NCBI GenBank assembly: GCA_022825895.1
Contig: JAJDVX010000027.1
Span: 59,528-123,527, forward strand
Direction of reading: 5' to 3'
DNA: 64,000 nucleotides
From: Chloroflexota bacterium
GTDB taxonomy: Bacteria; Chloroflexota; UBA11872
Shown piece by piece: positions 24,706-35,515 of the stretch (positions within the stretch are counted from its first letter, which is position 1; every line of letters begins with the position of its first letter). Position numbers and translations under genes: made by a program. The notes below the pieces were generated by a model. The model did not search any database. It saw only the letters and a list, made by a program, of their open reading frames with translations, and was not told the DNA's origin.

Positions 24706-25223
24706 CAGTCGTCTCGCGCCCGCAACTGGGCCAGCAAATCGCGGGCTTTCTCCGCGTTCAATGGTCCGTGCTGCTCCAGGTTCACCATCACGGCCGGCTG
24801 CAGATCGCACAGCCCCAGGCACGAGACCGACTCGGTTTCGAACAGCCCGTCCTCGGTAACTTCACTCACCCGCGTGCCCAGCGCCTCGTTGAAGGCCTTC
24901 AGCACCGCTGGCGCGCCTGAGATGTGGCAACTGAGGTCCCGACACACCCGCAGGACGTACTTGGCCGAGGGCTTGCGGTGGAACATCGTGTAGAACGTCA
25001 GCACGCCAAAGACCTCGCTCTCCGGCAGGCTGAGTTCCTCGGCGATCATCGTCACGGCCTCGGGCGGCACGTACGAGAAGACGGCCTGCGCGGCATAAAG
25101 CGCTTCCAGCGTGGCGCCCGGCTCGTCCTTCAGGTCGGCCAGGCGCGCTCGCAGGTCGTCCAGCTTGGCGTGGTCCCCGGGCGCAAGCGTCGAGCGACGC
25201 GGCGCGCCAGCATGAATCGCCAT
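24705..25223 (-). CDS. nuoE: NADH-quinone oxidoreductase subunit E-like (24 kDa, 2Fe-2S)
   Basis: 172 aa. Thioredoxin-like [2Fe-2S] Cys ligands: RVCRDLSCHISG...SVSCLGLCDLQP. Confidence 0.85.
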   Translation of the reverse strand: MAIHAGAPRRSTLAPGDHAKLDDLRARLADLKDEPGATLEALYAAQAVFSYVPPEAVTMIAEELSLPESEVFGVLTFYTMFHRKPSAKYVLRVCRDLSCHISGAPAVLKAFNEALGTRVSEVTEDGLFETESVSCLGLCDLQPAVMVNLEQHGPLNAEKARDLLAQLRARDD

Positions 25224-25392
25224 TGGGCCTCCCGCGGCTAAGGGGCGAGCGGCGGCAACGCCTTAACCTCTGGGCGCCGCACGCCGGCAACAGGAAGCGG
25301 AGTCTACCACCGGCCCATTTCCGCCACCGTCGCGTGCATTGCCTGACTCGGTCAGCCGATGGCAACGCGCCTCTCGCAGACAACTAACCGGA

Positions 25393-26133
25393 TCATCGTT
25401 CGCCCGGTACGGGTGGTTCAGGTGGCGGAATCCTCCTTGACGTCTCGGCAAAGACATTCCGAACCACCTCGGCCTCCAGCTCGCCGATGTAGTTCGAGTC
25501 TCGTTCGATGCGTTGGCACTCCTGCTCGCCAAGCAAATGCACGCCCTCGGCCGTGACCTGTCCGAGGCTGATCGGAAAGGCCAGACCGTGCGCCGATGTC
25601 CGAATGATGTCAGCCATGGCGCGGTAAAGAAGCACGCTGGCCAGATCCAAGTCGGTGTTCGGTAAGTCGTAGTGCGCCAAGCTCGCTCGAGCGAGATAGG
25701 CAAATGCCTCACCCGAACCAATCGCCGAGAAGTCGTCCGGAGAGTGAATGGTCGATTCGCCCATGAGGTTGATCCTGAAGATCCAGGCATGTCCGGCCGT
25801 GTGGCCGGCGAAGAGGAACGAGCTTCGCAGGGGATTTGTCGCCGACGACCCGAGCCATCGGCCCAATGCCTCACGCTGAACCGGATTCACCACGTCCAGC
25901 AGCTTGTGCCGCAGATCGTGAATCGAAGCGTCCTCAACACCGCTTCCAAGGTGCTTCTGCAACTCGTGCTCGATGACCTGAGTCGTGCCCACATCCCCGG
26001 CCGAGCCCCAAATGACCCGTGGGCCCAACCGGCGCAATTTCGGCGTTGTGAACCTCACCGATCCCATAGTTACTTGGCTGTCGGCCGCCACAACGATGCC
26101 CCCCTTGCACGCTGCCGCGACGATGAGGGTCAC
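25393..26133 (-). CDS. Proteasome-beta/HslV-like N-terminal-nucleophile threonine peptidase homolog with ~55 aa C-terminal extension
   Basis: 246 aa. It starts MTLIVAAACKGGIVVAADSQVTMGSVRFTTPKLRRL, with Thr at +1 after Met, Asp at +17 and Lys at +31. This aligns to HslV [37 protein letters not shown], and IWGSAGDVGT / SAIGSGEAF correspond to HslV GFAGGTAD / AIGSGG. Lower GC (~58-60%) than the flanks (~70%). Confidence 0.6.
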   Translation of the reverse strand: MTLIVAAACKGGIVVAADSQVTMGSVRFTTPKLRRLGPRVIWGSAGDVGTTQVIEHELQKHLGSGVEDASIHDLRHKLLDVVNPVQREALGRWLGSSATNPLRSSFLFAGHTAGHAWIFRINLMGESTIHSPDDFSAIGSGEAFAYLARASLAHYDLPNTDLDLASVLLYRAMADIIRTSAHGLAFPISLGQVTAEGVHLLGEQECQRIERDSNYIGELEAEVVRNVFAETSRRIPPPEPPVPGER

Positions 26134-26140
26134 GCTCTAG

Positions 26141-26641
26141 TCAGACTCGAGCAAGGCTGTTTGTGGCGTAGTCGGGCCACTGCTTGTAGACCGAGTACAA
26201 CAAGTCTCGGAACGACATCGACATTGCCCAGTCGCGCACGTCGAACAGATGATTTCCCATCCATCCGGCGTTTGATTCCAAGGTAGAGGCCGCGTCGGCT
26301 CCCAGGGCGGTGAGCCGGTACCGTGGCCAGGTTCGGCCAGGATTCGCTACCGGCTCGATGAGCCCCTCGTACTCAAGCTGGTCCAAATCTGGATATATCT
26401 CGCGAGCGAAGGGGCCGTATCTGTAGGGCTCGAACGCATAAAAGTCCGGCGCGTCTAGGTGAGCGCCAAGCTGCTGGTGGAATACGAAGAGAGTCTTCAT
26501 GAGCCGCATCGGGTCGATAGGCGCCGCAACACTCCCCTCGCGCCCGGCAACGGCCAACAGGAGCCAGTTTTTTCTCGTCACTCGGCGGTTCCCTTCCTCG
26601 CCGAAGACTGGCAACCTGATCGTAGCAGCGGCCAAGGGCAC
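26141..26641 (-). CDS. Panacea-domain (DUF4065; SocA/PanA antitoxin-like) protein
   Basis: 166 aa. PIDPMRLMKTLFVFHQQ...DFYAFEPYRYGPFAREIYPDL aligns with SocA PMTPMKLQKLLYYAQAW...LFPEEFEAWAHGPVVPEVYQ. It is 7 nt upstream of the HslV-like gene on the same strand. Lower GC than the surroundings. Confidence 0.65.
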   Translation of the reverse strand: MPLAAATIRLPVFGEEGNRRVTRKNWLLLAVAGREGSVAAPIDPMRLMKTLFVFHQQLGAHLDAPDFYAFEPYRYGPFAREIYPDLDQLEYEGLIEPVANPGRTWPRYRLTALGADAASTLESNAGWMGNHLFDVRDWAMSMSFRDLLYSVYKQWPDYATNSLARV

Positions 26642-26731
26642 CGTAGTATCGGTCGAGGTGATTGATCAGGCACAGCGCGCCCTAGATCAGACGCGCTACC
26701 CTCGCCCACTTACCTTGCTGGAGAGCCGCTC

Positions 26732-26938
26732 ATGGCGCTCACGCGGCCACAGGCCCGCGAACTCCGCAGCCTCATGCACGGCTGGACCCGGGCCTCAAAC
26801 GACGTGGCCGAGCACCTGCGCGGCGTGTCGGTAAGCAGCGACGGTTTGGACATGAAGGCCCTGCGTGCGGCCGTGGACCGCCGCTCCGAAATGGAGGAAC
26901 TGCTGATGTCGTTCTGGTCTCGAACAACGGCGGCCTGA
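26732..26938 (+). CDS. Hypothetical small protein
   Basis: 68 aa ORF divergent from the Panacea gene. Its stop lies 1 nt before the start of the isomerase gene. I recognise no family. Confidence 0.3.
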   Translation: MALTRPQARELRSLMHGWTRASNDVAEHLRGVSVSSDGLDMKALRAAVDRRSEMEELLMSFWSRTTAA

Positions 26939-26939
26939 C

Positions 26940-27872
26940 ATGTCAACCCGTGTAGACACAAACCTTCCGTTCTCGGTGGGCGTGGTCAATAGCGAGATCT
27001 CCTCGGACGTCGACGTTGGCGTGGCCGTCGCCGCCGACCTCGGGATGTCCCAGATTGAAATCGAGGACTTCTGGGGCCGCGCGGCCTTTGAGTGTGACGA
27101 CGCTCTCATCGAACGCACTCGAGTCGCGGTTGAGCGCGGCGGCCTCTACGTATCCGCCGTCGGCACGCAGGCCTTCAAGGTCCTCATCCTGCCGCCCGGC
27201 GACATCGGCGACCTGGCCTCCATCGACGGCTGGGACCAGCACCGCATTGAGCTCGAAGGCGGCATCCGCGTGGCGCAGGCCCTCGGATCGCCCTACGTTC
27301 GAATCTTCTCCTGCCGCCGTGACGACATGATCGGCATGGGCAATCCCAGCCCGCGCCTGCCCGACGGCGGACCGCTGCCCGACGACAGATTGGCCGGAAT
27401 CGTGGCCGTGCTGCGCGACGCCGGCGACCGCGCCGCCGCCGCCGGCGTAACCCTCCTGGTTGAGAACGTCCGCAGTTGCTGGGGCAACACCGCCGTCAAC
27501 ACCGTGCGCATCCTGGAAGCCACCGACCACCCCTGCGTCAGGCTGAACTGGGACCCATCCAACGGTTTCGTCTCCGGCGGCAACCCGTTCCCACACGGCT
27601 ACCAGCTCGCCCGCCGCTGGACAGAGCACGTCCACATCAAGGACGCCCGCGTGGTCGACCACGCGACCGGTCTCATCGCCTGGGAGTGCATTGGCCGCGG
27701 CGAAGTGGATTTTGTCGGTCAATTCCGGGCCCTTATTGATGACGGCTTCGCTGGGGCGGTGAACCTGGAAACCCACTGGCATCCCGAGCACCGCAGCCGG
27801 GAAGCCAACTCCCGCGAGTCTTTCGCCGGAATGCTCAAGGCCCTCGAACTCGCCCAACGCGCCGGTGCCTGA
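26940..27872 (+). CDS. Sugar phosphate isomerase/epimerase (xylose-isomerase-like TIM barrel)
   Basis: 310 aa. Family motifs LLVENVRS, WDPSNG and HVHIKD. Confidence 0.7.
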   Translation: MSTRVDTNLPFSVGVVNSEISSDVDVGVAVAADLGMSQIEIEDFWGRAAFECDDALIERTRVAVERGGLYVSAVGTQAFKVLILPPGDIGDLASIDGWDQHRIELEGGIRVAQALGSPYVRIFSCRRDDMIGMGNPSPRLPDGGPLPDDRLAGIVAVLRDAGDRAAAAGVTLLVENVRSCWGNTAVNTVRILEATDHPCVRLNWDPSNGFVSGGNPFPHGYQLARRWTEHVHIKDARVVDHATGLIAWECIGRGEVDFVGQFRALIDDGFAGAVNLETHWHPEHRSREANSRESFAGMLKALELAQRAGA

Positions 27873-31277: not shown

Positions 31278-32525
31278 CTAGGCTGGCGTCAGCACGCCGC
31301 GGTCGGCCAGCGTCTGCTCAAACGATGTGATGCTCGGTCGGATGTCATAGCGGGCGTCCACACGGCCGTCGATAGCCTCCTGCGTTTTGAGTCCGTTGCC
31401 GGTCACCAGCGCCACCGTCAGGTCGTCCCGAGCGATCACGCCGCGCTCCGCAAGCTTGGCCAATACCGCAATTGTCACGCCGCCCGCCGTCTCCGCAAAA
31501 ATGCCTTCGGTGGAAGCCAGCAGGCGCATGGCGTCCACGATCTCGTCGTCGGTGACGGCTTCGATCACGCCGTCCACTTCCTGTGCCAGCTTCAGCGAAT
31601 AGAACCCATCGGCCGGGTTGCCGATCGCCAGCGACTTGGCCACCGTGTCCGGCTGGCGAACCGGCCGGTACGTGGTCTGGCCGCGGGCGAACGCCTCGGC
31701 CACCGGCGCGCAGCCGTCCGCCTGGGCCCCGTGGATGCGGGTGGACTGGCTGTCCAGCAGCCCCACCTCCACCAACTCCTTCATCGCCTTGCCCATCTTC
31801 GTGTACAGCGAACCGGAGGCGATCGGCGCAACGATGTGGTCCGGCGCCACCCAGCCCAACTGTTCCACCGACTCGAAGGCCAGCGTCTTGGATCCTTCGG
31901 CGTAGTACGGCCGGATGTTGATGTTGCAAAAGGCCCAGTTGTAGAGGTCGGCGATTTCGCTGCACAGCCGGTTCAGTTCGTCGTAGGTGCCTTCCACCGC
32001 CACGATGCCCGCGCCATACACCGCCGCCCCGCGGATCTTGCCCACTTCAAGGTCGGCGGGCATGAATACGTAAGTGGGCATGCCGTGACGCGCCCCGGCG
32101 GCCGACACGGCCCCGGCCAGGTTGCCGGTGGACGCGCAGGCGAAGGTCTCGAACCCGAACTCGCGGGCCTTGGTGATCGCCACCGCCACCACCCGGTCCT
32201 TGAAGGAGTACGTGGGGTTTACGGTGTCGTTCTTGATGTGCAGGTTGGTCAGGCCCAGCCGTTCGCCCAGGTTGTCGGCGCGTTGCAGCGGCGTGAACCC
32301 GACCGGCCATGTCTCGTCCCAGCCCCCCTCCACCGGCAGCAACTCGTGGTAGCGCCACAGCGTGGGCGGCCGGCTGGCGATGGCATCGCGCGAGATGGTC
32401 TCGCGGATGGCCGCGTAGTCGAACTGCGCTTCCAGCGGCCCGAAGTCGAACTCGCAGATGTGCGTGGCTTGCAGCGGATACGCACGGCTGCACTCGCGAC
32501 AGCGAAGCGTCTGAGTCGTGGACAT
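31278..32525 (-). CDS. Threonine-synthase-family PLP enzyme with N-terminal Zn-ribbon (ThrC-like; possibly a carrier-dependent homocysteine synthase)
   Basis: 415 aa. LRCRECSRAY...HICEF is a Cys4-type ribbon. PLP-lysine motif YSFKDRVVA. Fold-type II Gly-rich loop. Confidence 0.75.
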   Translation of the reverse strand: MSTTQTLRCRECSRAYPLQATHICEFDFGPLEAQFDYAAIRETISRDAIASRPPTLWRYHELLPVEGGWDETWPVGFTPLQRADNLGERLGLTNLHIKNDTVNPTYSFKDRVVAVAITKAREFGFETFACASTGNLAGAVSAAGARHGMPTYVFMPADLEVGKIRGAAVYGAGIVAVEGTYDELNRLCSEIADLYNWAFCNINIRPYYAEGSKTLAFESVEQLGWVAPDHIVAPIASGSLYTKMGKAMKELVEVGLLDSQSTRIHGAQADGCAPVAEAFARGQTTYRPVRQPDTVAKSLAIGNPADGFYSLKLAQEVDGVIEAVTDDEIVDAMRLLASTEGIFAETAGGVTIAVLAKLAERGVIARDDLTVALVTGNGLKTQEAIDGRVDARYDIRPSITSFEQTLADRGVLTPA

Positions 32526-33228
32526 GCGGATGATCCTTGGCAGAGGCGCCGACGAAGATGTCAGCGGATGGCGAAGTCCCGAATCGCCGGGTAACCCGGC
32601 TCGCCCGCGTCACGCGCGGGCCCGGCCATCGCCATCGGCCGCTGAGCAGCGTGGGAGAGTTTGCCTCTCACTCCGTCGCAAACCCCTTGGCGCTCCGCGC
32701 CCCGCCCGGGGCGCTGCCTCGCGCCGGTGACCCTCGCATCTCGCAGCTTCCGCTACCGGAATTGGCACCCTCTCGAGCATTCGCTCGAAGGTTGCCCGGC
32801 TTCGTTGGGCCGACTCCCTCCACCAATCTTGATACGAGGTGTGTCACGTCAACCTTGGTGTTCGCGCATCCTAGCACCCGAAACGGCGTCCAGGCGGACG
32901 GCATGGGCCCGTCGAGCGGGAAAAACGCCTCGGACACCCCTCCCAGACGTGCTACGATGGGCGACTGCCTGAAAAGGCATCCGCGCAGTTCGGCGGCGCT
33001 TGATTCATCAGCCGCCCCGGTGGCGCACCGGCCATTATCAGCCGGTCGCGGGCGCGACGGCACCTTAACAGGGGAAGAGTGAGTGCGAGTACTCGCGTCA
33101 TTCCAATGTGTCTGGCGCGACAGTAATCCACGTGATTCGAGGATGACTCGGTGGCTCAGGGCTCCGGTACACCCGGCGCTCTGAAGTAATTGCGATCTGT
33201 ATCACGCCCGCCAGGGCGTGTGTTGAGA

Positions 33229-34752
<1,524 letters not shown>

Positions 34753-34974: not shown

Positions 34975-35330
34975 TGTGCCACCATGTACGGGAGCGTCGG
35001 GCCGGTCAGGCGGCCGCTCCGGCTCACGCCGGAGAGGAAAGTCCGCACTTCACAGAGCGCGGTAGCGGGTAACACCCGTCGCCCGAATCGGCTTACGCCG
35101 GCAAGGGCCGGAACAGGGGCACAGTGACGATGCCCGCGCTCCCACCTCGGGAGCGCGGGAGTGAAACGGCTAACCTCTACCGGAAGCAAGGCCAAGTCGG
35201 GACGCCACCAGGCTGCTCGCCCAGTCCCAGGTAGGCTGCACGAGGCCGGCGGCAACGCCGGTCCCAGATAGATGGCCGCCCACGACAGAATGCGGCTTAT
35301 CGACCGGTCCGACGCTCACCGGTCATCGGG
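34975..35330 (+). ncRNA. rnpB: RNase P RNA (bacterial type A); boundaries approximate
   Basis: P4 5' strand GGAGAGGAAAGTCCGC and 3' strand ACAGAATGCGGCTTATCG (compensatory CCGC/GCGG). GGGTAACACCC and GTGAAACGGC conserved regions are present. P2 pairs GAGCGTCGG (34991-) with CCGACGCTC (-35317). I did not resolve P1. Confidence 0.8.

Positions 35331-35440: not shown

Positions 35441-35515
<75 letters not shown>

Follow-up and report, generated by a model that had tools for sequence, protein, structure and literature searches.

A widespread two-gene module pairing a Panacea/DarG-like small protein with a predicted proteasome-type threonine peptidase

The stretch of DNA analysed here (the window, 64,000 nucleotides (nt) of contig JAJDVX010000027.1, assembly GCA_022825895.1, from a Chloroflexota bacterium) carries on its minus strand two closely spaced genes that constitute a real, widespread and apparently undescribed module: a small gene and, downstream of it, a gene for a proteasome-family (T1) threonine peptidase. 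As an earlier sequence-only reading of the window had stated, the two genes lie 7 nt apart. The peptidase gene (25393-26133, minus strand) encodes 246 amino acids (aa) from a GTG start; the small partner gene (26141-26581, minus strand) has its stop codon at 26141-26143 and encodes 146 aa including the GTG start, and the spacer from this stop to the peptidase GTG occupies 26134-26140. The longest open reading frame (ORF) of the small gene is larger (26141-26641), so that the 166 aa originally given are correct for the ORF, but the real product is most likely the 146-aa protein starting at GTG 26581, since all homologs are 136-146 aa long and begin with MTR(K/R)(N/D)WLL. No homolog carries the 20 additional codons from the GTG at 26641, and this 5' extension (26582-26641, minus strand) is probably an untranslated leader; a Shine-Dalgarno-like sequence (GAGGAAGGG, 26591-26599) is present 9 nt 5' of GTG 26581. 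The 7-nt spacer argues for co-transcription and probably coupled translation of the two genes. No promoter-like site turned up when 25200-27000 was scanned for sigma-70 promoters, and a search for inverted repeats further upstream (26540-26780) gave just one weak palindrome. The small gene (L001, 5553-5993) is uncalled in the ENA annotation of the same contig, and the protein collection lacks its exact product, the nearest match there being 88% identical; protein-level surveys would therefore miss it in this genome.

The peptidase passes the curated threshold of PF00227 (41.8 bits versus a cut-off of 22.4, residues 4-161), its family profile matches archaeal beta subunits over the full length (E 1e-10), and its predicted single chain has the Ntn-hydrolase alpha-beta-beta-alpha fold of a proteasome subunit. 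The catalytic residues recognised in the sequence-only reading are indeed intact: Thr2, Asp18, Lys32, Gly46 and G139-S140-G141 are all present in the window protein and are conserved in 147 cluster representatives (T2 88%, D18 95%, K32 98%, G46 99%, G139 100%, S140 84%, G141 87%). The C-terminal extension described there was also recovered, as a predicted helix (residues 203-232) that is followed by a Pro-rich tail and contains W216 and E220, conserved in 86-89% of the same representatives. The N-terminus reads M-T-L-I-V and has no propeptide, so that Thr1 would be exposed and the enzyme competent once the initiator Met has been removed. These features mark the peptidase as an intact enzyme of the proteasome type. 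Among 1.84 billion representatives, clustered at 50% identity, a search yielded at least 127 peptidase clusters at E<=1e-30, 554 at E<=1e-10 and 1763 at E<=1e-3; among the 150 matches listed, nearly all are 190-310 aa long and most align from profile position 1.

The initial description of the peptidase as HslV/proteasome-beta-like holds for its second half, whereas membership in HslV was rejected, with 26.8 bits for TIGR03692 (cut-off 157.75) and 26.5 bits for NF003964 (cut-off 137). The alignment with HslV is limited to the N-terminal 50-60 residues, and no hslU AAA+ gene is adjacent, the small protein being the sole conserved neighbour across 83 loci. The peptidase is far under every cut-off of the NCBIfam equivalogs for archaeal beta, HslV and bacterial beta proteins. 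Anbu was likewise considered and rejected, as Anbu chains match at E 1.9e-5 over the N-terminal half only; the operon partners of Anbu (ATP-grasp, alpha-E and transglutaminase proteins) are absent among the conserved or frequent neighbours of the module. In sequence, archaeal beta subunits and Anbu are nearer to the peptidase than HslV is. In a sister subclade of peptidases (L026 5454-9153, L027 2655-3425) GSARPYG replaces GSG, Thr1, Asp and Lys are intact and there is no small gene; the L026 peptidase is flanked by an ORF with an AHJR-like restriction-endonuclease fold, and by an 87-aa ORF and a 725-aa AAA_23/SMC_N ATPase. This subclade may represent a different partner system.

For the small protein, the sequence-only reading had proposed a clear Panacea domain of the SocA/PanA type. 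By the thresholds of curated models this does not hold: the window protein has no PF13274 match at E<=1, where PadR alone appears at E 0.04, and SocA membership was rejected because the SocA_antitoxin equivalog model gives 13.9 bits, far below its cut-off of 190. The PadR score of 14.4-14.6 bits is below threshold as well (cut-off 27, reached by a few relatives). Weak Pfam matches among 101 family members were to PadR (56 members, best E 4e-6), RTP (32) and SocA_Panacea (5, best E 0.034), and the NCBIfam matches were to antitoxin_DarG (42, weak, best 2.3e-6) and SocA_antitoxin (9). What remains of the claim is a more distant kinship with Panacea. By tblastn against plasmids we found haloarchaeal relatives, among them QIO25564.1, which is 32% identical to the window protein (E 7e-7), passes the gathering threshold of PF13274 (29.8 bits versus 25.7) and aligns with the family profile at an hhalign probability of 99.5% (E 1.3e-22, 119 columns, including the C-terminal VYxxYPxYAxNS motif). 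Through this intermediate, and only by comparison with the profile, the small-protein family is shown to be homologous to Panacea proteins.

The AlphaFold2 model of the small protein (pLDDT 94.8) consists of a winged helix and a four-helix C-terminal extension. In structure it best matches the C-terminal domain with which DarG sequesters its toxin, over 125 of 146 residues, whereas transcriptional regulators align over 75-90 residues; in a BFVD structure search a named Panacea phage protein ranks 7th (TM about 0.5). DarG (E 0.012) is also the best match of the family profile among PDB sequences, with the motifs IQK..YF and F.P.YGP.S aligned; a single-sequence phmmer search of the PDB with the small protein returned noise only. 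Four residues are invariant in the 101 sequences (K29, F32, G56, P57). The residue after G56-P57 is Phe (YGPF), comparable to YGPY in the DarG C-terminal domain, while the Panacea signature is GPV, which is reported to be critical for neutralisation by Panacea proteins (PMC8832971). Membership in DarG itself was rejected, for the small protein is a stand-alone domain with neither a macrodomain nor a DarT ADP-ribosyltransferase. Its PADLOC matches are confined to a type I specificity subunit C-terminal appendage, the candidate PDC-M19A and DarG, and net charge and pI of the small proteins were uninformative. Taken together, these comparisons place the small protein in a divergent branch of the Panacea/DarG-C-terminal-domain superfamily that is not a PF13274 member by threshold, with the DarG C-terminal domain as its closest characterised relative and some likeness to PadR. 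The superfamily would accordingly extend well beyond the reach of the Pfam model.

The two genes are linked far beyond this genome. In 185,579 species genomes, the small-protein profile detected 63 loci, from Solirubrobacterales and other Actinomycetota, Dehalococcoidia and other Chloroflexota, Terriglobia, Gemmatimonadota, Kryptoniota and others, and at 56 of these a peptidase ORF lies immediately downstream on the same strand. The reciprocal metagenome scan with the peptidase profile gave 18 loci; wherever enough upstream DNA was available the small gene was present, except at L016/L017, L026 and L027. With a larger peptidase hidden Markov model, both genes were found in 80 of 95 related loci, small gene first, so that the proposed coupled cassette is borne out by the synteny of its homologs. 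The phyla with the module include Chloroflexota, Actinomycetota, Acidobacteriota, Gemmatimonadota, Kryptoniota and Patescibacteria. Of 74 pairs, 35 have reading frames with a 4-nt overlap, most other gaps measure 2-41 nt, and Thr follows the peptidase start codon in all but three pairs (71/74). When the neighbouring ORFs of 83 loci were clustered, no third conserved gene emerged, apart from antisense shadow ORFs and synteny local to a lineage. The matrices of pairwise identity for the two proteins are correlated (Mantel r 0.69, a value reached in 0 of 2000 permutations; organismal phylogeny not separated out), which, at the level of the matrices, shows co-inheritance of small protein and peptidase. 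By all these indications the two genes are a functional cassette that is co-inherited as a unit across phyla.

At five genomic loci with a small gene and no peptidase (L032, L048, L076, L090, L095) the next ORFs were examined. Those of the high-GC loci were rejected as alternative partners: they are mutually unrelated, have the look of wrong frames, and their Matrixin and Clp_N matches are marginal. On viral contigs the small protein has a single relative, L095 (2140-3650; IMG/VR UViG_3300031669_000673). There the small gene is followed, with a 1-nt overlap, by a gene for a 353-aa protein with a Phage_Mu_F-like domain in the place of the peptidase, and this may be a partner swap, the one plausible case among the five. 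The haloarchaeal plasmid relatives (28-37% identity; L096 2690-3875, CP050019.1; L097 2593-3938, NZ_CP019286.1; L098 714-1903, NZ_CP104004.1) are the second gene of a different pair, whose first gene encodes about 250 aa with an N-terminal TrmB helix-turn-helix (HTH) in two of the three. A dGTP triphosphohydrolase gene is located near the L098 pair, and the L097 pair is flanked by an AbrB/PIN toxin-antitoxin pair and an IS66 transposase. In several metagenome-assembled genomes of Solirubrobacterales (L031, L036, L040, L049), from a sample seeded on the small gene, the peptidase frame is split or shortened and the small gene intact; this could be decay of a toxin with retention of its antitoxin, or could reflect assembly frameshifts.

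The composition of the pair is mildly atypical. Its guanine-plus-cytosine (GC) content is 60.7%, compared with 66.5% (standard deviation 3%) for the window, and 6.4% of same-size windows are as low; at third codon positions GC is 72-73% in the pair versus 82-89% in the flanking genes. The low-GC block of the sequence-only reading is therefore lower than its flanks, but the contrast is smaller than the claimed ~58-60% against ~70%. There is other low-GC sequence in the window, namely a dip at 33-35 kb, accounted for by RNA genes at 32.7-35.5 kb, and a further stretch at about 9.5-10.5 kb. The RNA genes are a 16S rRNA gene (33231-34751, plus strand), RNase P RNA (34998-35315, plus strand), tRNA-Met (35441-35515, plus strand) and a SAM riboswitch (32733-32838, minus strand) upstream of a 415-aa ORF (31278-32525). 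No 23S gene follows within the next 2 kb after the 16S rRNA gene, which suggests an unlinked rRNA arrangement.

In the window the pair is situated between a 68-aa gene and an AP_endonuc_2 gene on one side and, directly downstream on the other, homologs of nuoE and nuoF, whose presence had been correctly noted. The 68-aa gene (26732-26938, plus strand) has no Pfam match, is divergent from the module and lies directly upstream of the AP_endonuc_2 gene. Its identity in relatives is 88-93%, and it does not adjoin the module in other lineages. The lateral acquisition suggested in the sequence-only reading is only partly supported: the composition of the pair is mildly atypical, relatives with 90% and 63% peptidase identity carry the module at the same chromosomal site, and in a 57% relative it is found at a different site, convergent with a gene for a TIR_2 protein. 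This TIR_2 gene is intact (277 aa) in one assembly (L100 5895-6728) and split into 107-aa and 37-aa fragments in the other (L099 5895-6900), which could be decay or an assembly error. Compared with the 63% relative, flanking proteins are 78-95% identical and both module proteins 63.5-63.7%. Accelerated evolution was considered and rejected, since in the comparison with the 90% relative the ratio of non-synonymous to synonymous substitution rates (dN/dS) is 0.08-0.09 for both genes, with ordinary rates similar to the flanks; both genes are therefore under purifying selection. The discordance of 63% versus 78-95% fits better with cassette exchange or old alleles than with steady fast evolution.

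Elsewhere the surroundings of the module vary. At L092 (2312-14792; GCA_038915215.1, JBCLDD010000004.1) it is placed between a type I restriction-modification (R-M) system (HsdR, HsdM/S) and two BrxC/BrxD-like proteins with a DEAD/Cas3-like helicase, a clear defence island. A type IIG R-M system adjoins it at L003, HicB and a transposase at L093, and DDE transposases are nearby at L007 and L016; at L091 the module is found among plain metabolic genes. A Pfam survey of 136 neighbouring proteins from 37 loci had N6_Mtase, ResIII, DDE_Tnp_1 and Eco57I at the top with 3 members each; the families with 2 members each include N6_N4_Mtase, HSDR_N_2 and Phage_integrase, and the remainder is diverse and mostly metabolic. 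As raw counts with no background control, these neighbourhoods are suggestive of accessory or defence genes.

As the most likely reading, to which we give close to an even chance, we take the locus to be a self-contained two-gene module of the toxin-antitoxin-like or defence type whose small protein would bind the peptidase and restrain it. In such a module the two genes would be co-transcribed and translationally coupled, and the small protein would bind the peptidase and, in the resting cell, keep it inactive or block its assembly or its access to substrates. A trigger, for example phage infection or loss of the labile partner, would free the peptidase, and the freed enzyme would then cleave one or more cellular or invader proteins so that growth stops. 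Restraint by the small protein is suggested by analogy, because DarG's C-terminal domain sequesters the toxin DarT (Lawaree et al., PMC7003065) and some PanA antitoxins neutralise their partner toxins via the Panacea core (PMC10440598). It is further suggested by the peptidase, an enzyme with Thr1 and without a propeptide that has no built-in latency, and by gene order and coupling, which match those of type II modules. A more specific proposal gives the proteasome-fold threonine peptidase the part of effector in a bacterial immunity or toxin-antitoxin module, where it would arrest growth or bring about abortive infection and be restrained by a Panacea/DarG-like sensor-inhibitor; we consider this possible and put it forward with some reserve, at somewhat less than an even chance.

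Several observations weigh against restraint of a toxic peptidase. Proteasome-like peptidases that are self-compartmentalising normally leave folded proteins unharmed, and toxicity is thus not a given. No PADLOC defence system as such is matched by either protein, PADLOC having no model for the peptidase. Intact peptidases of a neighbouring subclade occur without the small gene (L016, L026, L027), and the small protein also resembles PadR regulators, with weak matches in 56 of the 101 members. Several loci, the window included, lie among housekeeping genes, and the association with defence genes was counted without a background control. The module is nearly absent from viral contigs, which gave one locus in the scan with the small-protein profile and no sign of a phage origin, and 72,556 plasmids searched by tblastn yielded no match to the peptidase.

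The main rival is a dedicated, non-toxic system of regulated proteolysis, in which the small protein would be a substrate-recruiting adaptor, an assembly factor or a gate and the peptidase would serve physiological turnover instead of conflict. Strict pairing and coupled translation would suit a stoichiometric complex, and there is a precedent in SocA, a Panacea protein that acts as a proteolytic adaptor and delivers SocB to ClpXP (PMC8832971); alpha subunits that gate beta subunits offer a parallel. The stable position of the module in relatives of the window lineage, the strong purifying selection and the housekeeping neighbourhoods at several loci are in line with such a role, as is the lack of a conserved AAA+ partner, which calls for another control of access (PMC8665760). 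However, neighbourhoods are variable and contain no conserved gene for a candidate substrate, R-M, BREX-like, TIR and transposase genes recur in them, the composition of the pair is atypical, and in the alignment the small protein has no C-terminal docking motif of the HbYX or GQYL type. We therefore regard an adaptor or gate as unlikely, though it deserves serious weight.

A second rival holds that the small protein is merely a PadR-like winged-helix repressor of its own operon and that the peptidase acts alone, without protein contact. Besides the weak family matches already given for PadR (56/101, best E 4e-6) and RTP (32/101), the segment comprising recognition helix and wing (IYPDLDQLEYEGLI...GRTWPRYRLT) is similar to the PadR signature, and some members have been named PadR regulators by JGI. 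This rival is less likely, because the best-conserved residues (K29, F32, YGPF and the C-terminal VYxxYPxYAxNS) are outside the DNA-reading elements of PadR and because the match to the toxin-binding domain of DarG covers 125 of 146 residues, against 75-90 for regulators. Moreover, Asp replaces basic positions of the PadR recognition helix, and the scans described above offered a putative repressor no promoter-like site and a single weak palindrome. Autoregulation would also be compatible with an antitoxin function, so that this rival mostly overlaps with the restraint of the peptidase by the small protein; as a separate explanation we consider it quite improbable. A fortuitous or lineage-specific adjacency of functionally unrelated genes is hardly credible, as 80 of 95 loci in several phyla keep order and strand with overlapping or near-abutting frames while their surroundings change.

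We found no description of a pairing of the small protein with the peptidase, in agreement with the sequence-only reading, which knew of no such module. The Panacea paper (PMC8832971) names no proteasome-type partner in its main text and in part of its supplementary files, nor does the NetFlax paper (PMC10440598) in its main text; the survey of proteasome homologs (PMC8665760) does not describe the pairing, and no relevant literature was found on YwgA or on proteasome-like anti-phage systems. That survey reported 22 new families of proteasome homologs without a genomic context or co-occurrence suggestive of function (Fuchs, Alva and Lupas 2021, PMC8665760). The module gives a large orphan clade of bacterial proteasome relatives its first consistent, near-obligate partner. 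To our knowledge, no function has been assigned to the bacterial proteasome homologs besides HslV and the 20S core. If a restrained effector is correct, the module would provide the first functional handle on these orphan homologs, the proteasome fold would gain its first role in a bacterial conflict system, and N-terminal-threonine proteolysis would be a new effector chemistry in the Panacea/DarG-governed repertoire of toxin-antitoxin and phage-defence biology. Should the target of the peptidase be narrow, as in connectase, it might also become a tool enzyme.

Among known systems, the peptidase shares with Anbu, BPH and the 22 families of PMC8665760, which are orphan proteasome homologs of bacteria, the beta-like fold, the residues Thr1, Asp17, Lys33 and Gly47, and the lack of both a propeptide and a nearby AAA+ unfoldase. 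Its long C-terminal helix resembles the H5 coiled coil of Anbu and WPH. WPH (representative WP_040339656.1) is the most similar group; compared by description only, it has in common with the peptidase the C-terminal helix, similarity to alpha and beta subunits and a wide range including Actinobacteria and other bacteria. Unlike the families of that survey, which have no suggestive context, the present peptidase has a near-constant partner gene, and unlike Anbu it is not accompanied by ATP-grasp, alpha-E and transglutaminase operon partners. With HslV it shares the N-terminal TT/TL-IV-A..D motif, the Ntn catalytic apparatus and the absence of a long propeptide, but it is 246 aa long instead of about 175 aa and has no adjacent hslU.

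On the side of the small protein, the module appears to vary the toxin-antitoxin-like architecture of the Panacea/DarG type, with a proteasome-fold protein as its putative effector. PanA-PanT systems (Kurata et al. 2022, PMC8832971; Ernits et al. 2023, PMC10440598) have several features in common with it. A small Panacea-superfamily protein, a compact domain of 7 helices and beta hairpins, is encoded co-directionally with an adjoining, unrelated effector gene, the Gly-Pro of the signature motif is kept (GPF here, GPV in PanA), and the wider family shows partner swapping, with TrmB-HTH proteins in haloarchaeal plasmids and a Mu-F-like one in a viral contig. In contrast to PanA, the window protein is under the PF13274 threshold, its branch keeps almost entirely to one partner family (about 85-90% of members), and the partner is a threonine peptidase of the proteasome fold. 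With the DarG C-terminal domain (PDB 7yk3) the small protein aligns at the motifs IQK..YF and F.P.rYGPyS; it differs from DarG in standing alone, with neither macrodomain nor DarT ADP-ribosyltransferase, and in having a peptidase as its partner. The type VI toxin-antitoxin system SocAB likewise ties a Panacea-superfamily protein to a compartmentalised protease; SocA, however, hands its toxin to the housekeeping ClpXP encoded elsewhere, whereas here the protease-like gene is itself the operon partner. With type II toxin-antitoxin modules, finally, the locus shares two small, adjoining and co-directional genes with overlapping or abutting frames that are inherited as a unit in a variable, often mobile or defence-related context.

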